Of a DNA stretch of 64,000 bases, positions 4,968 to 34,692 are shown piece by piece; within the stretch, counting starts at the first letter, position 1, and every line of letters starts with the position of its first letter. The notes beneath the pieces were generated by a model, which saw only the letters and a program-made list of their open reading frames with translations, searched no databases and was not told the DNA's origin. The stretch is taken from the NCBI RefSeq assembly GCF_058153355.1, contig NZ_CM177019.1. One strand, written 5' to 3'. The translations under genes and the position numbers were made by a program.

Positions 4968-6622
4968 TACCAGCCCCCTCGTTCAAACTGGTGATAATCA
5001 TCAAAATCATCGTTATCAACATCATCACCACGGTGGCGTGGTGGCAGCGCCTGTATGCTGTCCTCGTCGATAACAAAACCATTCATATAAGACGCTCTGA
5101 CAGCCATACAGAGCGCCACGGCAAAGTCGCCATGTCGTCGGCCTTTACCACCTTCATCTTTTGTGCGCCCCTTATCAATCTGCGGAATACCTTTGTCCAC
5201 CTTGATGTGGAGCAGGTCATCAAGAGTGGTCTGGTGCCGGGCAATCGTGATGTTCTGCGCTTCAAACTCGCCTTTCAGTTTTGGCATCCACTCCTGATAC
5301 CAGGATGCGGTCAGATTCACACAGTCGATCATCTCCGGGCCATAAATCAGACGGGCGGCTTCTGCCAGATAACCGCCGTTACCGGTGGCATCAAATGCAG
5401 CGCCGGTAAAACGGGGCAAACGGGACAGAATGAATAAAAGGATTTGTCGCTGCTGGTCATAGGTCACATTACGCAGCTCCACGCGGAAACATTCGCGTTT
5501 GCGTAAGTCAGGAGTGATGGCAAGCGGAACAAACACCGTCAGGTCGCCACGGCGTGCAAAGTCTTCGCCCAGTACGTGTTTATTGAGCGGCGACAGCGCA
5601 TCGAGCAACGGGAGCAGCTCCTGTTCACACCAGTCCTGAACGATGCCGTGGCGCATTTGTGGTGTCAGCGATTCAAAATCGTCCGGGGCTTCAAAACGCA
5701 GAATCGGGATATCCCGCGCTGGCGTCATGGCGGCTTCAATCAGCACGCGTGACAGATAAGCGCCCCCGGATTTTTTAGGAATGCAGCCGTATTCCTCGTC
5801 GGCACTCTCTTTATTCGGCGCATTCCGGTACAGGCCATCACGCCAGGCTTTTTCCGCTTCCGGCGACCACGGCTGATTCGTGACGTAACAGATACGTCGG
5901 TACAACCCGTCAGCGATGGCATCATCCAGCGTGATGCGGTGAACGCTGTAATCCTTGCGCCCCTCGCGCGCATCCTGAATGTACTGGTTAAACAGGTTAT
6001 CGACGCCGTTATGTGTCGATATGATCCGCACGCGGGCACCCCACATGGTGAGAGCAAAGGCCGCTTTCAGGAGTTCGTCCAGGGCTTCATGAAATGCCGC
6101 CTCATCAATCACCACGTCCCCCTGCAAACCACGCAGGTTAGACGGACGGCTTGACAGCGCCTGCACCTTAAATCCGCTGTTAGGGAAACGGATCATATAA
6201 GTGAGGATTTCTTCTTTTTTGTCGCTGTCCCAGAAGGTCTGCTCCCAGACATCAGCCTTTGCCAGCTGGTTAAAGGCGCGGGCAAACAGGGCACAGGCGG
6301 CGATATATTCCAGCGCCATTTCCTGACGGGAACCCACATAAAAGACGTTGCGACCGCCACGGCGGCGCGGCTTTGCTGCCGTCATGACATTGCGGCCCGC
6401 TTCGGCCCATGTCAGACCGGTACGACGGGATTTTTCAGCGATGCAAATCTGGCTTTCATCCTCAAACCAGCGGCGCTGATAGCCCAGAAAAACCGGTTCA
6501 TTGCGGGGCTGTGCTTCCCCGATATCGGTCACGATATTCACGCCGAGCAGTTCGGCTTCCTCACGCAGGTTGATTTTTCGGGGGGCATGAAGGGCTTTAA
6601 GGTTGTTTTCTCTGGTGTTCAT
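4967..6622 (-). CDS. Mu large terminase subunit (gp28)
   Basis: Track ORF is 615 aa, but an internal ATG at 6622 (MNTRENNLKALHAP...) sits just downstream of the gp27 stop, giving 552 aa; position upstream of portal. Confidence 0.85.
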   Translation of the reverse strand: MNTRENNLKALHAPRKINLREEAELLGVNIVTDIGEAQPRNEPVFLGYQRRWFEDESQICIAEKSRRTGLTWAEAGRNVMTAAKPRRRGGRNVFYVGSRQEMALEYIAACALFARAFNQLAKADVWEQTFWDSDKKEEILTYMIRFPNSGFKVQALSSRPSNLRGLQGDVVIDEAAFHEALDELLKAAFALTMWGARVRIISTHNGVDNLFNQYIQDAREGRKDYSVHRITLDDAIADGLYRRICYVTNQPWSPEAEKAWRDGLYRNAPNKESADEEYGCIPKKSGGAYLSRVLIEAAMTPARDIPILRFEAPDDFESLTPQMRHGIVQDWCEQELLPLLDALSPLNKHVLGEDFARRGDLTVFVPLAITPDLRKRECFRVELRNVTYDQQRQILLFILSRLPRFTGAAFDATGNGGYLAEAARLIYGPEMIDCVNLTASWYQEWMPKLKGEFEAQNITIARHQTTLDDLLHIKVDKGIPQIDKGRTKDEGGKGRRHGDFAVALCMAVRASYMNGFVIDEDSIQALPPRHRGDDVDNDDFDDYHQFERGGW

Positions 6623-6629
6623 AACCCTC

Positions 6630-7220
6630 TCATGCCTTACCCAGCAGCACATCACGGATACGCTGCTCCAGCTCTTCGCTGATGCCATCCTGCCCGCGCA
6701 GTTCTTCACTGACGGCGTTTGCCGCTTCTTCTGCGAATGCCTGGCGGATTTCTTTCTCGCGCCGGTGGCTGGACATTGCCGTGGATTCCAGACGCTGTGC
6801 CGCCAGCATGGCATTTTTCAGCAGGTCAATATCCACGTCAGATTCCGGGTTTTCGATTTGCCGCATCATGGCCTTAAAAAGCTGGCTGCGGGCCATTTCC
6901 AGAATCAGCTTTGTGGTTTCTCCCATTGGCTTGTCGCCAAGTTCTGCGGTCAGTGCTGACGTCATTTCACGCATCTGTCGCAGGTTATGGCCTACCTGCT
7001 CGACGTTCGTCGCGTAACGATTCAGACCGGAACGGGAGAGTTTCATCTCATCCGGCAGGCCAGCGTCTTCAATCAGTGCGTTAATTTCTTCCAGAATGCG
7101 GGCCTGTGGGATCGCCTTATCACGCAGCATTTCATGCAGCGTTTTACGTACGTTTTCCGGCAGTAAATCCACTTTTGAAGCCCGGCCCCGTGTTTTCCTG
7201 TCCATCACGCCTCCTGTCAT
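6630..7220 (-). CDS. Mu gp27, DNA-binding small terminase-like protein
   Basis: ORF track 196 aa, charged helical protein immediately upstream of the large terminase gene. Confidence 0.7.
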   Translation of the reverse strand: MTGGVMDRKTRGRASKVDLLPENVRKTLHEMLRDKAIPQARILEEINALIEDAGLPDEMKLSRSGLNRYATNVEQVGHNLRQMREMTSALTAELGDKPMGETTKLILEMARSQLFKAMMRQIENPESDVDIDLLKNAMLAAQRLESTAMSSHRREKEIRQAFAEEAANAVSEELRGQDGISEELEQRIRDVLLGKA

Positions 7221-7507
7221 GCACGGGGACGCGGACGCTTGACACCGGCAACGCGGGCGCGGCCTTCCGCCACATCCTGACCTCGGGAGGTCAGCGTTAC
7301 GACATAAAAGCCGCGCAGGTTTTCCACGGTGACCAGTTGCTGCTCTGCCAGCCAGTCAATCTGGCCGCGAACCACATCGCGGGAAACGTTGTGTCCGTAT
7401 GCATCCAGACAGTCCTGAAGGATGGATTCGTTGGCTTCGTTATTGCAGTCCATCAGGGAACGCAGGATGACCAGACGACGGTCTTCAGTCAGAATATCGT
7501 TAATCAT
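7217..7507 (-). CDS. Mu gp26-position hypothetical protein
   Basis: ORF track 96 aa; start overlaps the upstream gene stop (ATGA). Confidence 0.6.
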   Translation of the reverse strand: MINDILTEDRRLVILRSLMDCNNEANESILQDCLDAYGHNVSRDVVRGQIDWLAEQQLVTVENLRGFYVVTLTSRGQDVAEGRARVAGVKRPRPRA

Positions 7508-27336: not shown

Positions 27337-28185
27337 ATGGAAAAGAAATTTTTTATGGATTGGGATAATGAAATCCCGCAAGAAGAGTTTATTAACAATA
27401 TTTTAGCCGATGAAGACCTGCCTAAAATCCGCTCTCTGATTATTGGTCGTTGGGGGGAGTGCTGGGATGAGGAAAGTTGCCAACCAATAATCGACATGTT
27501 TGTTGAACATGCCGAACGCTTTGCTCATCTCGAATCCCTATTTATCGGCGATATGGAAAGCGAAGAGTGTGAAATTTCGTGGATAAAACAAGGGGATTAT
27601 TCTCGTCTGTATGCTGCGCTGCCGAACCTGAAAAAGCTGACAATTAAAGGTACTCAGGGCCTGGAACTGGGAGAAATCGCCCATGACAAACTGGAGCATC
27701 TGGAAATTATCTCTGGCGGTACGCCGTGTGACGTGTTCGCCTCATTGCAAAATGCCCAACTGCCTGCGTTAAAAACACTTATCGTTTATATTGGCGTTGA
27801 GAATTATGGTTTTGATGCATCGCTGGATATCGTAATGAAGCTGGCGTCGAAATCCCTCTTCCCGAGCCTGACGCATCTTGGCCTGGTGAACAGCGAAGAG
27901 CAAAACGAAATCGTCCGCCGCGTGCTGGAAAGCGACATTCTGCCGCAACTGGAAGTGCTGGCACTCTCCTGCGGTACGCTTACCGACGAAGGTGCAGAGC
28001 ATCTTCTCAAACATGCCGATCGCCTTAGCCATCTGAAACTGCTGGATTTGTACCATCATTACCTGACAGAAGAGATGCAGAAAAAACTGCAAAAAACACT
28101 GACATGTACTCTCGAATTATCAGAAGCGCTAACGCCTGAAGTCTATGATGACGAAATTTATATGCATGCGATGTATACCGAATAA
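27337..28185 (+). CDS. Leucine-rich-repeat (ribonuclease-inhibitor-like) cytoplasmic protein; first gene of non-K-12 operon
   Basis: ORF track 282 aa; repeated LxxLxxLxL units (LPNLKKLTIKG, LEHLEIISG, LPALKTLIVY, FPSLTHLGLVN, LPQLEVLALSCGTLTDEGAEHLL, LSHLKLLDL); AAGGA Shine-Dalgarno. Confidence 0.7.
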   Translation: MEKKFFMDWDNEIPQEEFINNILADEDLPKIRSLIIGRWGECWDEESCQPIIDMFVEHAERFAHLESLFIGDMESEECEISWIKQGDYSRLYAALPNLKKLTIKGTQGLELGEIAHDKLEHLEIISGGTPCDVFASLQNAQLPALKTLIVYIGVENYGFDASLDIVMKLASKSLFPSLTHLGLVNSEEQNEIVRRVLESDILPQLEVLALSCGTLTDEGAEHLLKHADRLSHLKLLDLYHHYLTEEMQKKLQKTLTCTLELSEALTPEVYDDEIYMHAMYTE

Positions 28186-29232
28186 ATGACATTTATTGGG
28201 AGAGAGTCATCTCTCCCATTATTTATCACAGAAAAGGAATTCTTCGTGATTACGCTAATTGGTCATCCTGAAAGCAAACGCACATTTTATTTTTGCCAGG
28301 CAGCGTCACGCTTACAGGAACATATCAACGTAGTGAGCTATGATCAAGCACTTACCCTGCTCTTAAATAAAGGCATGGTAAAAATCGATCCCCCCTTACA
28401 TCAGGAAACAGATATTCGCTTAATTAATACGGTTAGCCAAAACTATATTACTTTTTTACAAAAAATGGCTACCAGAAGGGAGATCCGTTTTATTAACTCA
28501 CCAGAAGGTATTATTCATCTTCTGGATAAACGCCACTGTAAGCAACGATTAGTCGAACACGCGATCCCGACACCGCCAATATTAGCGGATGATATCCGTA
28601 GCTACGATCAACTGATCGCCTGTATGCGCAGCGAAAAGGTTTATCGCGTGTTTATTAAGCCGAATTTCGGATCAGGGGCCGCCGGGGTGCTGGCTTTGAG
28701 TCTACATCCCGGCGATAACCGTCAGGCGCTTTATTGCGCCATCCAGGTTGCAGGTGACAGGCTGGTGAACAGTAAACATATTATCCGCTATGAAAACAGC
28801 GGTGATATTACGTTGATTGTGAATGCTATTTTACAACAAGACAATATTATCGAACGCTGGCTGGCAAAAGCCAGAGTGGGCAATAAAAGCTACGATTTAC
28901 GCATAGTGTACGTTAATGGTGAAATCGTCTGGCGGGTTGTCAGAACATCATCACAGCCGATCACCAATTTGCATCTGCAAAATGAAGCCATTCGTTTTGC
29001 CGATCTTAATTTACCCGCAGAAAAAGTGGCTGACATTGACACGCTTTGTCTCAACGCCATGAAACTCTACCCGGACGTACACATTGCCGGGCTTGATGTA
29101 TTACTCACGCAAAACTTAACCCCCTATATTATCGAAATTAACGGCCAGGGCGATCTTATTTATCAGGACACCTGCGAACAAAATATGATTTATCAACGCC
29201 AGATTCAGGTAATGAGAGAACACCATGTATAA
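28186..29232 (+). CDS. ATP-grasp ligase, RimK-like
   Basis: ORF track 348 aa; KPNFGSGAAGV and EINGQGD ATP-grasp motifs; alternative GTG start at 28246 with AAAGGAA Shine-Dalgarno. Confidence 0.75.
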   Translation: MTFIGRESSLPLFITEKEFFVITLIGHPESKRTFYFCQAASRLQEHINVVSYDQALTLLLNKGMVKIDPPLHQETDIRLINTVSQNYITFLQKMATRREIRFINSPEGIIHLLDKRHCKQRLVEHAIPTPPILADDIRSYDQLIACMRSEKVYRVFIKPNFGSGAAGVLALSLHPGDNRQALYCAIQVAGDRLVNSKHIIRYENSGDITLIVNAILQQDNIIERWLAKARVGNKSYDLRIVYVNGEIVWRVVRTSSQPITNLHLQNEAIRFADLNLPAEKVADIDTLCLNAMKLYPDVHIAGLDVLLTQNLTPYIIEINGQGDLIYQDTCEQNMIYQRQIQVMREHHV

Positions 29233-30097
29233 CGTAACAGACGAAGTCCCGGAAAATACCCGCACGGCAATCCATTCCTGCGATGGCGAAATCAATATGA
29301 ATGATTTGATAGCCAGGGAGGCGAATGTTCTGTTTGTAGTGCTTGATTCCCTGCGTTTTGATATTGCGTTTCAGGAACAAGAGGCGGGCAATACGCCGAA
29401 CATTAACCGCTATGGTCGCTGGATAAAGTGCGAAGCCGCTGGCAATTTTACCTGGCCTTCGCATCATTCGATGTTTTCTGGTTTTATGCCTAAGCCGCTG
29501 GAAGCCGCACCGGGCCATTCAATGCTCTTTTTTCCCAAAGATATTGGCTTAGGGCGTTTAGGGCCAAAAAATGCATTCGCATTCAGCGAAGAGACGTGGA
29601 TTAAAGGGCTGGAAAACAAAGGTTACCGCACTATCTGCGTGGGTGGCATCTCCTTTTTTAATAACCGCTCAGGGATGGGAAAAGTGTTCCCGGCGATGTT
29701 TAAAGAGAGTTACTGGTATCCTAATTTCTCCTGCACGGTGAAAGAGAGCATGGATAATCAGCTCACCTTAATTAACAAAAAGGTGAACGCTGAACAGCCG
29801 CTGATGATGTATATCAATATCGACACCATTCATTATCCGAATCATTTTTATATTGAAAATGCCAAACCTGGCGATACGGTAGAAACTCACGCCGCTGCCC
29901 TGCATTATATTGATGCCAGAATCGAAAAACTTTTCGATATCTTTCGGCAAACCGGGCGGGAAACGTTAGTTATTCTCTGTTCCGATCATGGCACCTGCTA
30001 CGGGGAAGACGGTAAATATTTCCACAGTTTTAACCATCCGATTGTGAATACCGTACCCTATTTTCACTTTGTGTTAGACGGCAAAGACCATGAATAA
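29225..30097 (+). CDS. Alkaline-phosphatase-superfamily metalloenzyme, type I phosphodiesterase / nucleotide pyrophosphatase (NPP)-like
   Basis: ORF track 290 aa; VVLDSLRFD metal-ligand motif, NFTWPSHHSMFSG (Thr nucleophile context), C-terminal CSDHG. Confidence 0.65.
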   Translation: MYNVTDEVPENTRTAIHSCDGEINMNDLIAREANVLFVVLDSLRFDIAFQEQEAGNTPNINRYGRWIKCEAAGNFTWPSHHSMFSGFMPKPLEAAPGHSMLFFPKDIGLGRLGPKNAFAFSEETWIKGLENKGYRTICVGGISFFNNRSGMGKVFPAMFKESYWYPNFSCTVKESMDNQLTLINKKVNAEQPLMMYINIDTIHYPNHFYIENAKPGDTVETHAAALHYIDARIEKLFDIFRQTGRETLVILCSDHGTCYGEDGKYFHSFNHPIVNTVPYFHFVLDGKDHE

Positions 30098-31232
30098 TGA
30101 ATCGATTTATCAGCAATATATGTACAGTTACCCGCATAAGACCGCTTATCGGGAATTAAACAATATTGCTTTTGCGGATGTGAAATCGCGTATTTACGAG
30201 CATAAAACACATCTCTATATTCATATGCCTTTTTGCCAGAGCCGCTGCGGGTTTTGTAATCTCTTTACCTGCACGGGGGCAGACAATGCCTTTATCGACA
30301 ACTACATAGAAGCAATTATTATCCAGGCCCGGCAAATGCAACTTGCGCCTGTAGACTGGGCCAGTTTTACCATTGGCGGCGGTACGCCACTACTGCTTAA
30401 TACCGGGCAACTGTCACGGTTGTTTCGCGGGGTGTTTGACGAATTACAGGTCGATGCGCAGATTTTTAAGGCAATTGAAACATCGCCTTCCGATACCACC
30501 GCCGAAAAGGTCGCGTTATTGCGCCAGCTTGCGGTAAGCCGCGGCAGGGGTAATTTCCCGATAATCAATATTGATATTATTTACGGTATTCCTGGTCAAA
30601 CAGCCGCAAGTTTAATGGCGTCGCTTAATCAGGCATTAGATTATCAGCCTGACGAACTTTTTTTGTACCCGCTGTATAACATGCCGCGCCAGCCGGATAT
30701 GTATAGCCTCTATATTGAAGCCCGCGATCGCTTATTGCATGAAGGTTATACGCAAACGTCAATGCGCCGTTTTGTGCGGGTGAATAATGAGTCGACGGCT
30801 GAAAGTTGTGGCTTTGAAAATTCGCTGGCGCTTGGCGCGGGCGGGCGCAGTTATCTTGGCAATTTACATTACTGCACGCCGTGGTCGCAAAACCAGCCCG
30901 CATCGCGGCAAATTGTCACGGATTTTATCGCCCGGCCAGATAAGACCCAGATTCACCACGGCTATGTACTTTCACAAGCAGAAATGAAGCGGCGTTTTAT
31001 TATCAAGAATCTCTTTTTCTATAAGGGGCTTTCGTTACGGGATTATCAGCATCAGTTCTTCTCTGAGGTATTAAGCGATTTTCCCCTGCTGGGAGATTTC
31101 ATCAAACAAGATTACTGCCACCAGCAGGATAATCGTATTCTGCTCACCGCGCAGGGTTTAGCGCTTTCGGACCAGCTTGGCCCGCTGTTTATCTCCCCGG
31201 AAGTTCGCAGGCTGGAGACGCATAAACGATGA
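30090..31232 (+). CDS. HemN-like radical SAM enzyme (HemN/HemW/class C rSAM methyltransferase family)
   Basis: ORF track 380 aa; YIHMPFCQSRCGFC CxxxCxxC motif, FTIGGGTP, IDIIYGIPGQT; parallels hemN in this window (YVHIPFCHKLCYFC). Confidence 0.8.
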   Translation: MNNESIYQQYMYSYPHKTAYRELNNIAFADVKSRIYEHKTHLYIHMPFCQSRCGFCNLFTCTGADNAFIDNYIEAIIIQARQMQLAPVDWASFTIGGGTPLLLNTGQLSRLFRGVFDELQVDAQIFKAIETSPSDTTAEKVALLRQLAVSRGRGNFPIINIDIIYGIPGQTAASLMASLNQALDYQPDELFLYPLYNMPRQPDMYSLYIEARDRLLHEGYTQTSMRRFVRVNNESTAESCGFENSLALGAGGRSYLGNLHYCTPWSQNQPASRQIVTDFIARPDKTQIHHGYVLSQAEMKRRFIIKNLFFYKGLSLRDYQHQFFSEVLSDFPLLGDFIKQDYCHQQDNRILLTAQGLALSDQLGPLFISPEVRRLETHKR

Positions 31233-32086
31233 CGCTCAAGCAGATCCAGACGCTGATTTATCGCGGCGAGATAAAGTCGTGTAATTATCGCTGTGGTTAT
31301 TGCCCTTTTCATAAACAAGACCGCAATGATAAACAGCAGGATGAAGTGGCATTATGGCGCATGGTTGAACATTTACCGGCGCTGGGTTCACCATTAAATG
31401 TATTTATTACGCCCTACGGCGAAGCATTGCGTTATCGTTATTATATGGCGGCGATGGCGGAAATCAGCCGCTATTCCCATGTGCAGGCGGTGGGTATTCA
31501 GACCAACGCCTCTTTTAATTTATCCACCTTAGTCGCGACTTTTCAGCACTCTCAGGGCGATTTAGCAAAGCTGCGGCTGTGGTGTTCGTTTCATCCTTCC
31601 CAGGTCAGTAAAGAAGTTTTCCTTAAACAGTTACTGGCAATTAAGGACACGGGGATTACCTGTTCTGTGGGGGCCGTCGCCAGCGTAGCCGACTATGACG
31701 AATTACAGTGGTTACGCGCGCATCTTCCTCCCGATATCTATTTCTGGCTAAACGCCAATGAGCGCGATAAAAGGCCCACCAGCGACGAAAGAAATAGCCA
31801 GTTTCAGTTGCTGGACCCGCTTTATTATCTGGAAACCAGCCTCTGGCCTGCCAATGTCGAGTTTTGTCTGGGCGGCAAAAAGAGCGTGTTTATGAATGCT
31901 GATGGCGATCTCTTCGCCTGTAATATCAGCAAAATTAAGATTGGCAATTTATATCAACAGCAACTTTCATCTCCGGCTTGTATGTCCAGGCACTGTCACT
32001 GTTATCTGGCTTATCACCTGCGTGAGGATATTCCGGCCCTCTCACAATTTGATGCTGAACGCTGCTTTCGGATCTTCTCGTTATGA
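31229..32086 (+). CDS. Small radical SAM-like protein with viperin-like cluster motif
   Basis: ORF track 285 aa; N-terminal CNYRCGYCPFH (CxxxCxxC); C-terminal cysteines CNISK...CMSRHCHC; ATGA overlap with the upstream gene. Confidence 0.55.
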   Translation: MTLKQIQTLIYRGEIKSCNYRCGYCPFHKQDRNDKQQDEVALWRMVEHLPALGSPLNVFITPYGEALRYRYYMAAMAEISRYSHVQAVGIQTNASFNLSTLVATFQHSQGDLAKLRLWCSFHPSQVSKEVFLKQLLAIKDTGITCSVGAVASVADYDELQWLRAHLPPDIYFWLNANERDKRPTSDERNSQFQLLDPLYYLETSLWPANVEFCLGGKKSVFMNADGDLFACNISKIKIGNLYQQQLSSPACMSRHCHCYLAYHLREDIPALSQFDAERCFRIFSL

Positions 32087-32778
32087 TCTGGCGGTTAATC
32101 GCGCTCGATTTAGACGGCACATTGCTGAACAGCAAGAAGATGATTTCCCCTGCGTCTGTTTCGGCACTGCAAAGCGCACAACAGGCAGGTGTGAAGATTA
32201 TCCTTGCCACCGGACGTTCGCACAGCAAAGCCCTGCCTTATTACCAACAATTGCAGTTAACCGAGCCGATGATTTGCTGTAACGGCAGCTATCTTTATCA
32301 TCCGCGCCAGCGGCAAATATTGCGTCCGCTGGCGCTTGATATCCACAAGGTGGAACAACTACGACTCTGGTTTTCACAACAAATATTGCAGCCAAATATT
32401 TATACGTACGATGATTTTGTTTTGCAGATTAGCCTGATACACCGCAAGACTTCGTTATTGCGCCAGACAGAGGAATTTGCCCGGCAAGAATTATCGCTGG
32501 CCTGTAGCTGGTCCTGGCATCATCAACTGGATATTACTCAGGCGGGGTGCGATAAAGGCAAAAGTCTGCTCTGGTATGCCCAGCAGCAAAATATCGCGCT
32601 GGATGAAATTATTGCCTTTGGCGACAACGATAATGATGCGGGGATGCTGCGGATGGTAGGCAAAGGGATTGCGATGGGCAATGGCAGTTCGCTGGCAAAA
32701 GTCAGTGCTGACCGCGTTATTGGTCACAACAACACAGATGCTATTGCGGATTTTCTTGATGCGCAGGGTTTCAGATGA
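32083..32778 (+). CDS. HAD-superfamily Cof-type (IIB) phosphatase
   Basis: ORF track 231 aa; LIALDLDGTLL (DxDGT) and FGDNDNDAGM motifs. Confidence 0.8.
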   Translation: MIWRLIALDLDGTLLNSKKMISPASVSALQSAQQAGVKIILATGRSHSKALPYYQQLQLTEPMICCNGSYLYHPRQRQILRPLALDIHKVEQLRLWFSQQILQPNIYTYDDFVLQISLIHRKTSLLRQTEEFARQELSLACSWSWHHQLDITQAGCDKGKSLLWYAQQQNIALDEIIAFGDNDNDAGMLRMVGKGIAMGNGSSLAKVSADRVIGHNNTDAIADFLDAQGFR

Positions 32779-32821
32779 CGCCTGATGCGATGCTGGCGCA
32801 TCTTATCAGGCCTACAAAAGC

Positions 32822-32851
32822 AAAAAACCTGCCATCGCTGGCAGGTTTTTT
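32822..32851. terminator. Bidirectional Rho-independent terminator between the island operon and typA, next to a REP-like element
   Basis: aaaaaacctgccatcgctggcaggtttttta hairpin flanked by A- and T-runs. Confidence 0.75.
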
Positions 32852-32868
32852 ATGACTAAAAAACGAAA

Positions 32869-34692
32869 TTAATCGTCTTTCGGTGCGCGGTTGGCGCGAC
32901 GACGATCGTTTTCCGTCAGGTGACGTTTACGAATACGGATAGAGGTCGGAGTCACTTCTACCAGTTCGTCATCATCGATGAACTCCAGAGCTTGTTCCAG
33001 AGTCATGCGGATAGGCGGAACCAGAACAACGGCTTCGTCAGTACCGGAAGCACGCATGTTGGTCAGTTTCTTACCGGTCAGACAGTTTACAGTCAGGTCG
33101 TTAGAGCGGCTATGAATACCGATAATCTGACCTTCGTAAACTTCTGCACCGTGACCGAGGAACAGCTTACCGCGATCCTGCAGACCGAACAGCGCGAACG
33201 CGACCGCTTTACCCTGACCGTTAGAGATCAGTACACCGTTCTGACGCTGTCCCACTTCGCCCGGACGTACGTCGTCGTAGTGGCTGAAGGTGGAGTACAG
33301 CAGACCAGTACCGGAAGTCATGGTCATGAACTCAGAACGGAAGCCAATCAGACCACGGCTTGGGATCACGTAGTCGAGACGTACGCGGCCTTTACCGTCT
33401 GGATTCATGTTTTTCAGGTCGCCTTTACGTTCGCCCAGCGCCTGCATCACAGAACCCTGATGCTGTTCTTCAACGTCCAGAGTCACGTTTTCATACGGCT
33501 CTTGTTTACGACCGTCGATTTCACGGAAGATAACTTTCGGACGGGATACCGCCAGTTCGAAACCTTCACGACGCATGTTTTCGATCAGAACAGACAGGTG
33601 CAGTTCGCCACGACCAGAAACGCGGAACGCATCGGCGTCTTCAGTTTCTTCTACGCGCAGCGCAACGTTGTGTACCAGTTCTTTGTTCAGACGATCCAGG
33701 ATCTGACGAGACGTTACGAACTTACCTTCTTTACCGCAGAACGGCGAGGTGTTAACGCAGAAGAACATAGAAACGGTCGGCTCATCAACGGAGAGTGCCG
33801 GCAGCGCTTCAACGTTTTGCGTGTCGCAAACGGTGTCAGAAATGTTCAGTTCGCCCAGGCCCGTGATCGCCACGATATCGCCAGCTTCCGCCAGATCGGT
33901 TTCGATACGTTCCAGACCGAGGTGGCCCAGCACTTTACCGACTTTCGCGTTGCGGGTTTTGCCTTCGCTATCGATGATAGTAACTTGCTGGTTCGGCTTC
34001 ACTTTACCGCGCTTGATGCGGCCAATGCCGATAACGCCAACATAGCTGTTGTAATCGAGCTGAGAAATCTGCATCTGGAACGGACCGTCAAGGTCAACGT
34101 CCGGCGCAGGAACGTGGTCAACAATTGCCTGATACAGCGGGGTCATGTCTTCCGCCATATCTTCGTGGTCCAGACCGGCGATACCGTTCAGCGCAGAAGC
34201 GTAAACGATCGGGAAGTCCAGCTGCTCGTCGGTCGCGTCGAGGTTAACGAACAGGTCGAATACCTGATCCACAACCCAGTCAGGACGCGCGCCAGGGCGG
34301 TCAACTTTGTTGATAACAACAATCGGCTTCAGGCCATAAGCAAACGCTTTTTTGGTTACGAAGCGCGTTTGCGGCATCGGGCCGTCAAATGCGTCAACCA
34401 CCAGCAGCACTGAGTCTACCATGGACATTACACGTTCAACTTCACCACCGAAGTCGGCGTGCCCCGGGGTATCAACGATGTTGATACGGTAATCATTCCA
34501 TTTGATAGCGGTGTTTTTCGCGAGGATGGTAATCCCACGCTCTTTCTCCAAATCGTTGGAGTCCATCACGCGCTCTTGGGTTTCGGCACGAGAGTCGAAC
34601 GTACCAGATTGTTGGAGCAGCTTGTCTACCAGGGTGGTTTTACCATGGTCTACGTGCGCGATGATGGCGATATTACGCAATTTTTCGATCAC
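32869..34692 (-). CDS. typA: Ribosome-associated translational GTPase BipA/TypA
   Basis: ORF track 607 aa, [26 protein letters not shown]... Confidence 0.95.

Follow-up and report, generated by a model that had tools for sequence, protein, structure and literature searches.

An ATP-grasp ligase and a Thr-nucleophile hydrolase in a conserved six-gene cassette led by a leucine-rich-repeat protein with a C-terminal glutamate

The ATP-grasp enzymes ArgX, LysX, and RimK each act by ligation to the Glu at the C terminus of a partner protein. LysX and ArgX attach an amino acid to LysW (...EDWGE) through the gamma-carboxylate of its terminal Glu; such LysW/ArgW carriers with their LysX/ArgX ligases are found in Thermus, Sulfolobus, and Thermococcus and also in the amino-group carrier protein (AmCP) pathways of Streptomyces. 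RimK extends the C-terminal Glu of S6 by poly-alpha-glutamylation. The substrates of MptN and CofF are terminal glutamate-like carboxylates, and to our knowledge every characterized member of the RimK/LysX/ArgX/CofF/MptN branch activates a terminal glutamate or glutamate-like carboxylate. Here, we analyzed a 64,000-nucleotide stretch of contig NZ_CM177019.1 (NCBI RefSeq assembly GCF_058153355.1; hereafter, the window), in which an ATP-grasp ligase gene and a hydrolase gene of the alkaline phosphatase superfamily lie side by side at positions 28186 to 30097. An earlier reading of the DNA letters (the sequence-only reading) had picked out this pair. Both genes are real and intact, but it had read them in isolation, and they actually lie inside a conserved six-gene cassette whose first product, the leucine-rich-repeat (LRR) protein STM4015, ends in a Glu that is the likeliest substrate of the ligase.

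The ligase and the C-terminal glutamate of STM4015

The cassette consists of six plus-strand genes, STM4015, STM4014 (the ligase), STM4013 (the hydrolase), STM4012, STM4011, and a Cof-type HAD gene, which are translationally coupled, each overlapping or abutting its neighbor (Table 1). All six open reading frames (ORFs) score above the cutoffs of their NCBIfam families; these families have been named by NCBI, and the cluster as such is therefore already catalogued. The ligase and hydrolase correspond to two long ORFs that overlap by 8 nucleotides (nt), the first of them open from an ATG at 28186 or a GTG at 28246. The first ORF belongs to NF038074 (STM4014; 335.5 bits against a cutoff of 175, E value of 4.1e-100, residues 23 to 343 of the ATG form) and the second to NF038075 (STM4013/SEN3800; 349.8 bits against a cutoff of 250, E value of 9e-105, residues 25 to 284), and neither is a chance ORF. 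The five motifs quoted in the sequence-only reading (KPNFGSGAAGV, EINGQGD, DSLRFD, NFTWPSHHSMFSG, and CSDHG) are all present in the translations and map to family-invariant catalytic columns of the ATP-grasp and hydrolase alignments. Compared with the closest E. coli relatives, 322 of 328 ligase residues and 287 of 290 hydrolase residues are identical without gaps (98 to 99% identity). That reading had named two findings that would refute it, a frameshift or pseudogene and missing catalytic residues. The lengths of both proteins are unchanged from those of the E. coli orthologs, so that neither gene is frameshifted or a pseudogene, and the alignments show complete catalytic sets in both.

In 27 STM4014 orthologs from Enterobacteria and Clostridia, the invariant residues (counted from the GTG start) are K138 of FIKP, G144-A145-x-G147, E203, W205, K208, D217-x-R219, T240-N-L-H-L-x-N246, D284, and E297-x-N299-x-Q301-G302-D303. 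The Pfam search proposed in the sequence-only reading returned the ATP-grasp domains ATPgrasp_YheCD (1.7e-5) and ATPgrasp_ST (1.2e-4), and partial NCBIfam matches were to MptN, RimK, LysX, and CofF. The AlphaFold2 (AF2) model of the protein (predicted local distance difference test [pLDDT] score of 91.9) gave 693 matches in the Protein Data Bank (PDB) with Foldseek at E values of ≤0.001, headed by ATP-grasp ligases. The best solved fold is ArgX with LysW (3vpb; 4.3e-15, TM-score of 0.76 on the target), followed by RimK with S6/RpsF (5zk6; also 7qys) and LysX/ArgX with LysW (5k2m), and then by PsnB, DcsG, and D-Ala-D-Ala ligases. A profile sequence search against the PDB gave only marginal Ddl matches. 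By its Lys, Gly-rich loop, and Mg-binding set and by its predicted fold, STM4014 is a complete member of the ATP-grasp superfamily. The earlier view of it as a RimK-like amino-acid ligase thus agrees with its catalytic set, its ArgX/LysX and RimK fold neighbors, and its partial family matches. STM4014 works like RimK and LysX, yet it is a separate family: the cutoff of the RimK family TIGR00768 (143.4) was missed, with 38.2 bits over residues 38 to 169 only (1e-9), and the LysX hidden Markov model (HMM) gave 31 bits against a cutoff of 275.6.

The gene directly upstream encodes STM4015. Residues 3 to 282 of this protein match the solved structure 2RA8 from B. fragilis (1.6e-71), and Pfam gives faint LRR signals. 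We compared 80 fetched loci from Clostridia and Enterobacteria, in which every copy of STM4015 ends in ...[PA]-M-[LIYF]-T-E-stop; T281 and E282 are 100% invariant among 80 distinct STM4015 sequences. Tails found in Streptomyces, Methylobacterium, and Paenibacillus read ...VAVGE, ...IAVSE, and ...PSLTE, and across four phyla the sole universal tail residue is the last Glu, E282. A profile search of 1.84 billion representatives (50% identity) recovered 1,306 STM4015 relatives at E values of ≤1e-30. Among the 149 best of these, 145 (97%) have the terminal Glu. It is preceded by S (55), G (38), T (36), or A (11), with V, I, or L one place earlier (position -3). Of the four proteins lacking it, at least three appear truncated or unrelated. 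As far as we could check, neither the Glu-tail hallmark nor its connection with a RimK/LysX-like ligase has been described before.

The tail and the ligase also travel together. In the 80 loci, the order 4015-4014-4013-4012-4011 is near-universal and STM4015 is always the first gene; one locus (L086) has all parts in a permuted order. Three divergent STM4015 members, with tetratricopeptide repeat (TPR), WGR, or DUF1508 N termini, keep both the tail and the neighboring ATP-grasp and hydrolase genes. Locus L094 (3785 to 9565) has the triad 4015-4014-4013, followed by caspase-nSTAND, TPR, and WG-repeat genes. This triad-only locus and the wider conservation make the ligase/hydrolase pair plus the upstream STM4015 the tightest core of the cassette.

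From the resemblance of STM4014 to ArgX, LysX, RimK, MptN, and CofF and from the invariant Glu tail encoded beside it, we infer that STM4014 activates Glu282 of STM4015. For the cassette as a whole, the explanation that we favor is a carrier or tail-modification pathway centered on this Glu, to which we give about even odds. STM4015, ending in hydrophobic-small-Glu-COOH, would serve as the carrier or substrate. STM4014 would phosphorylate a carboxylate of Glu282 and join Glu282 to an amine, which could be an amino acid or an amino-phosphoester and conceivably a lysine on a target protein. The tethered group would then be tailored by STM4013, acting as a Thr-nucleophile phospho-alcohol transferase or phosphodiesterase, by two radical S-adenosylmethionine (SAM) enzymes, and by a phosphatase (HAD here, PHP elsewhere). 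Tandem copies of STM4015 and the conserved hairpin after its gene suit a carrier, the invariant D41/T76/D254/H255 set of the hydrolase and the HAD and PHP phosphatases suit phosphate chemistry, and the auxiliary-cluster cysteines of STM4011 suit a protein or peptide substrate. The sequence-only reading had suggested activation and tailoring of a nucleotide- or phosphate-containing substrate. The evidence favors the C-terminal Glu of the upstream protein over a free nucleotide as the acyl substrate, while a phosphate-bearing intermediate remains likely.

The likeness to the LysX/ArgX-LysW systems goes beyond the ATP-grasp fold. The partner ends in a small residue and Glu in both cases (...WGE in LysW; ...VGE, ...VSE, or ...LTE in STM4015 relatives), the carrier and ligase genes are adjacent (for STM4015 and STM4014, in essentially all loci), and the tethered intermediates, as proposed here, would be processed by further enzymes, including phospho-intermediate steps. 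In contrast, LysW is a zinc ribbon of about 54 amino acids (aa) and STM4015 an LRR protein of 282 aa, and the cassette has no LysZ, LysY, LysJ, or LysK homologs but has two radical SAM enzymes, an alkaline-phosphatase-superfamily enzyme, and a HAD protein instead. The RimK-S6 pair shares with the cassette a protein substrate ending in Glu, besides the structural and partial HMM matches given above, but the target here is non-ribosomal and there are four further enzymes. In Pup-PafA, mycofactocin MftA/MftC, pearlin TglA, and PqqA/PqqE, too, a ribosomally made protein undergoes ATP-dependent activation of a carboxylate (Pup has a terminal Glu) or radical SAM chemistry at its extreme C terminus, and the operon begins with the precursor gene; for pqqA, a hairpin is known to follow this gene, like the one after STM4015 described below. 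However, PafA is glutamine-synthetase-like and not an ATP-grasp enzyme, the precursors are short peptides, and those systems have no alkaline-phosphatase-superfamily enzyme. Graspetides differ as well: the upstream gene here encodes a 282-aa LRR protein and not a short precursor with repeated Thr/Ser-Asp/Glu, the only cross-phylum invariant residue of the tail is the last Glu, and PsnB is a lower-ranking fold match.

Several points weigh against a Glu-centered pathway. STM4015 is a folded LRR protein of 280 aa, often with a sensor-like N terminus, unlike small carriers such as LysW, and its conserved tail could serve in docking or autoinhibition instead. The Foldseek ranking of the ligase is shallow, with no more than about two orders of magnitude separating ArgX from D-Ala-D-Ala ligases, DcsG, and PsnB. 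In L094, no radical SAM genes lie beside the triad, and in L028 and L039, both contigs of less than 6 kb, no ATP-grasp gene was found. The cassette has no conserved amidase or peptidase by which a product could be released. Full-text literature searches, whose reach did not extend to a 2009 amidoligase survey, returned no functional study of the cassette and no published function for its families. The only mentions were incidental, an entry for STM4015 in a table of positive selection and a sigma-54 site from a ChIP-chip study of Salmonella LT2, which lies inside STM4013 in antisense orientation (TGGCATAAAACCTGAAAA).

The missing release enzyme would be expected if the ligase and the alkaline-phosphatase-superfamily enzyme acted on a free phosphorylated or nucleotide-like metabolite in a soluble small-molecule pathway, finished by the radical SAM enzymes and the phosphatase, with STM4015 reduced to the role of a regulator, chaperone, or scaffold whose tail is a docking motif. 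The enzyme set (ATP-grasp, phosphoester enzyme, two radical SAM enzymes, HAD or PHP) does resemble those of cofactor and antimetabolite pathways; MptN and CofF, to which the ligase has partial matches, act on cofactors, and Cof-type HAD enzymes usually dephosphorylate small molecules. Such a pathway, however, leaves unexplained the exact terminal Glu in 97% of STM4015-family proteins, the inseparability of the STM4015 gene from the ligase gene, and the tandem duplication of STM4015, nor is the cassette accompanied by a conserved transporter or exporter. We consider it unlikely.

Table 1. Features of the cassette in the window
Feature	Position	Strand	Basis or remark
STM4015-family protein, 282 aa, cytoplasmic leucine-rich-repeat	27337..28185	+	NF038076, 323 bits (cutoff 275)
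C-terminal tail codons A-M-Y-T-E of STM4015	28168..28182	+	stop at 28183-28185
Hairpin, 9-bp stem, 4-nt loop, then TTATTTAT (U-rich tract)	28197..28218	+	terminator-like site
Shine-Dalgarno AAGGA, 7 nt before GTG 28246	28234..28238	+	read from sequence
STM4014-family ATP-grasp ligase, 328 aa from GTG	28246..29232	+	NF038074, Pfam, PGAP start, AF2, fold matches
STM4013/SEN3800 alkaline-phosphatase-superfamily enzyme, 290 aa, soluble	29225..30097	+	
STM4012-family HemN-like radical SAM gene	30090..31232	+	NF006067, 424.8 bits, two stretches
STM4011-family radical SAM protein, 285 aa	31229..32086	+	NF038073, 299 bits
Cof-type HAD-IIB phosphatase, 231 aa, accessory member	32083..32778	+	TIGR00099, 182.6 bits (cutoff 137)

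The hydrolase and the distribution of the cassette

Across 33 orthologs of the hydrolase, D41, T76, P78, H80, N198, H203, H222, D254, H255, E261, H267, and H271 are invariant (codons of D41 at 29345 to 29347, of Thr76 at 29450 to 29452, and of D254-H255 at 29984 to 29989). Judged by the alignment, these residues are the metal and nucleophile set of the alkaline phosphatase superfamily, with Thr as the nucleophile in an invariant T-[WY]-P-S-H (T76-W-P-S-H80 here). The C/S-x-P-x-R of formylglycine sulfatases is absent from this position, and such a sulfatase was rejected as a candidate. The sequence-only reading was therefore right to see a Thr nucleophile and to set the enzyme apart from Cys/Ser sulfatases, but its assignment to the nucleotide pyrophosphatase/phosphodiesterases (NPPs; PF01663) did not hold. 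The best Pfam match is Sulfatase PF00884 (2.7e-16, residues 34 to 271), while the proposed search with PF01663 matched residues 161 to 257 only (5e-6). With NPPs the enzyme shares the Thr nucleophile in T-x-P-x-H and the superfamily core. Foldseek searches with the AF2 model (pLDDT of 84.5) returned EptC, the NPP from Xac, an arylsulfatase, and MCR-1 at similar E values, with the best TM-scores and root-mean-square deviations (rmsd) for phosphoethanolamine transferases. In the structural comparison, the Z scores were 16.5 for EptC, 16.3 for LtaP, 16.3 for EptA, about 15.7 for sulfatases and BcsG, and 15.6 for PhoK; the Xac NPP came at rank 32 with 14.5. With only a partial PF01663 match and with phosphoethanolamine and glycerophosphate transferases closer in fold, NPP membership was rejected.

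EptC, EptA, MCR-1, LtaS, and LtaP have the same Thr nucleophile and Asp...Asp-His metal site, and the spacing DHG-x3-GE-x-G-x3-H that follows the metal ligands in STM4013 appears to resemble the phosphoethanolamine transferase pattern of MCR-1. STM4013, however, is a soluble cytoplasmic protein of 290 aa without a membrane domain or signal peptide, its translation having no hydrophobic N-terminal segment, and it is only 13 to 18% identical to these enzymes; the NCBIfam models of EptA and other phosphoethanolamine transferases give it 16 to 19 bits against cutoffs of 500 to 660. STM4013 is thus a minimal, soluble member of the PF00884 branch with a Thr nucleophile, and its nearest counterparts are enzymes that transfer phospho-alcohol groups via a phospho-Thr intermediate. 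Because the spread of Z scores is shallow, the hydrolase is best treated as its own family. It should be annotated neither as an NPP nor as a sulfatase. Its first 24 residues (29225 to 29296) form an N-terminal extension that contains a conserved E-V-P motif. The NCBIfam model starts at the next residue, the invariant Met25; since two homologs also start there, alternative initiation at 29297 is possible.

The PF00884 match also bears on another explanation, namely that a radical SAM enzyme modifies the alkaline-phosphatase-superfamily protein itself, as anSME does for sulfatases, with the ligase and the LRR protein as accessories. Natural fusions of the hydrolase with the HemN-like radical SAM protein (4013::4012) occur in six loci (L027, L051, L078, L079, L085, and L039), and in STM4011 an auxiliary-cluster domain is accompanied by a faint match to anSME, the latter over CxxxCxxC only. 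The invariant Thr in T-x-P-S-H cannot give formylglycine, though, which counts against such maturation; the hydrolase of L094 has no adjacent radical SAM genes, and the ligase and the Glu tail are left unexplained. This explanation can hardly be correct. Other natural fusions join the ligase to the hydrolase (4014::4013, in L024) and STM4011 to HAD (in most Clostridia), and all these fusions speak for a functional link among the cassette genes.

The cassette occupies the slot between ompL and typA, where K-12 holds yihL-yihM-yihN, and at least 80% of it is present in 157 of 5,426 complete E. coli genomes. It is found at the same chromosomal site in Salmonella and E. marmotae. Among about 100,000 species genomes, 345 have a relative of the hydrolase, and most of these belong to Lachnospiraceae or other Clostridia. 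Plasmids of Streptomyces fungicidicus, Methylobacterium currus, and Paenibacillus carry annotated copies of the five-gene core without HAD, and the cassette core is kept in at least four phyla. The cassette occurs in Salmonella enterica, several Escherichia species, and hundreds of gut Clostridia, as well as on these plasmids. In the Streptomyces (L090, 2180 to 3644) and Methylobacterium (L091, 3534 to 4859) loci, it is accompanied by a DUF6745 protein, ending in ...PLKET or ...PLVET, and by a conserved protein of about 100 aa, both absent from the enterobacterial and clostridial loci. HAD itself is absent from the Streptomyces, Methylobacterium, and Paenibacillus loci, and in a metagenomic locus (L093) a PHP-domain phosphoesterase at 6587 to 7336 stands in its place; at the cassette end, the two kinds of phosphatase can replace each other.

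Part of this distribution, together with the variability of STM4015, would suit a conflict or defense system, in which STM4015-type proteins are sensors and the enzymes, once activated, make a toxic or signaling molecule or tag a target. N-terminal additions in STM4015 relatives include one or two WGR domains (the WGR domain being frequent), TPR, other LRRs, DUF1508, and membrane segments, all on a constant LRR-tail module, and tandem paralogs occur (three copies in L028, two in L039, two in L090, and three in one JGI contig). The accessory presence in E. coli as an alternative to yihLMN, the location on large plasmids, and certain neighbors (GmrSD/PLD/kinase in L004, caspase-nSTAND in L094, HipA in L091, and PemK inside a JGI locus) point the same way. 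On the other hand, PADLOC-DB v2 has no family matching any of the six proteins at E values of ≤0.01, the flanking genes are mostly unrelated housekeeping and transport genes, the chromosomal site is fixed in Salmonella and several Escherichia species, and no real phage copies were found. We regard a conflict or defense role as quite improbable, although it can coexist with tail modification, for example as Pup-like conjugation through the C-terminal Glu.

In phage collections, the STM4013 gene occurs at 74.7% identity in three records (OR845521.1, OR850900.1, and AFYI01000005.1). Two of them are unannotated and 2 to 6 kb long, and the third, of 156 kb, bears the name Salmonella enterica serovar Infantis. 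All three look like chromosomal fragments and not phage genomes, and a phage origin of the cassette was rejected.

Ligase start, intergenic hairpin, and downstream genes

The sequence-only reading had left the ligase start ambiguous between the ATG that abuts the STM4015 stop and the GTG at 28246, with the better Shine-Dalgarno sequence at the latter. Our comparison settles on the GTG. An ortholog is annotated by the NCBI Prokaryotic Genome Annotation Pipeline (PGAP) from the homologous position, the NF038074 match begins two residues past the GTG, and Superficieibacter has an ATG there. The GGA of the Shine-Dalgarno sequence is kept in five of five aligned lineages. The 60-nt stretch from the STM4015 stop to the GTG gives only a poor alignment with Salmonella and Superficieibacter, with indels of 6 to 7 nt, and contains a conserved hairpin. 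For these reasons the ATG at 28186 was ruled out, and by the alignment the GTG at 28246 is the start and bases 28186 to 28245 are a structured intergenic spacer.

The hairpin has a folding z-score of -3.0, and no Rfam family matches it. A hairpin of 8 to 9 bp with a 4-nt loop is found at the same place in four lineages when each is folded separately, with stems that differ in sequence: GGGAGAGA/TCTCTCCC in Escherichia, GGGGAATG/CATTCCCC in Salmonella, and GGGGAATG/CATTCCC in Superficieibacter. Compensatory changes, confirmed by the separate folding and read directly from the alignment (in which the hairpin of Salmonella is shifted by one column), preserve the structure across these three genera. 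From these sequences, it is a putative attenuator or 3'-end stabilizer between STM4015 and the enzyme genes, and it may set the carrier-to-enzyme expression ratio; under the proposed pathway it would probably keep the carrier in excess over the enzymes.

Downstream of the pair, the STM4012 gene of this strain has a 96-bp in-frame deletion with its junction near 30543 and a GCG microhomology, leaving 380 aa against 412 aa in relatives. The lost 32 residues hold nine positions invariant in 72 homologs (S153, G155, Q157, S158, F159, E163, L164, R169, and H171), including the conserved S-x-G-x-Q-S-F strand, and the same deletion was found in none of 97 complete E. coli genomes having the region. 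Without this core segment, STM4012 is probably inactive and the cassette probably non-functional in this strain; the gene should be flagged as deletion-bearing. An internal deletion was also considered for HAD, which matches its HMM in two stretches, and rejected: all E. coli relatives also have 231 aa, and the deletion is therefore confined to STM4012. In STM4011, the invariant cysteines are C18, C22, and C25 (CxxxCxxC) and the C-terminal C213, C231, C251, C256, and C258, and the homolog in L093 has a weak SPASM match, which together indicate a predicted auxiliary cluster of the kind common in radical SAM enzymes that modify proteins or peptides.

Elsewhere in the window, positions 1 to about 19500 match, with 97% identity, a Mu-like prophage (transposase, terminase, DUF935, head morphogenesis, and protease genes) that a minority of E. 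coli genomes carry. Just downstream of typA, a match to the enterobacterial small RNA STnc370 (32816 to 32884, minus strand; 53.2 bits against a gathering score of 54) lies beside a weak naRNA4 match (32745 to 32812, plus strand), with a strong bidirectional terminator-like hairpin at 32821 to 32852.

Implications

Taken at its widest, the proposal is that an LRR family with an invariant Glu (more than 1,300 representatives at 50% identity) is loaded by the ligase and elaborated by STM4013, two radical SAM enzymes, and a phosphatase in a protein-templated chemistry not recognized before; we put this forward tentatively, as somewhat less probable than its negation. If true, the result would be a new protein-bound modification, one acting as a switch on a sensor-like LRR protein, or else a small molecule assembled on a carrier of 280 residues that can be reused. 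The carrier and C-terminal-tagging chemistry of LysW, RimK-S6, and Pup would be extended to a large folded repeat protein and linked to radical SAM chemistry and phospho-transfer, and the solved but unannotated structure 2RA8 would gain a role. The invariant terminal Glu beside a RimK/LysX-like ligase turns a hypothetical operon into a testable lead, a possible mass change of the STM4015 tail.

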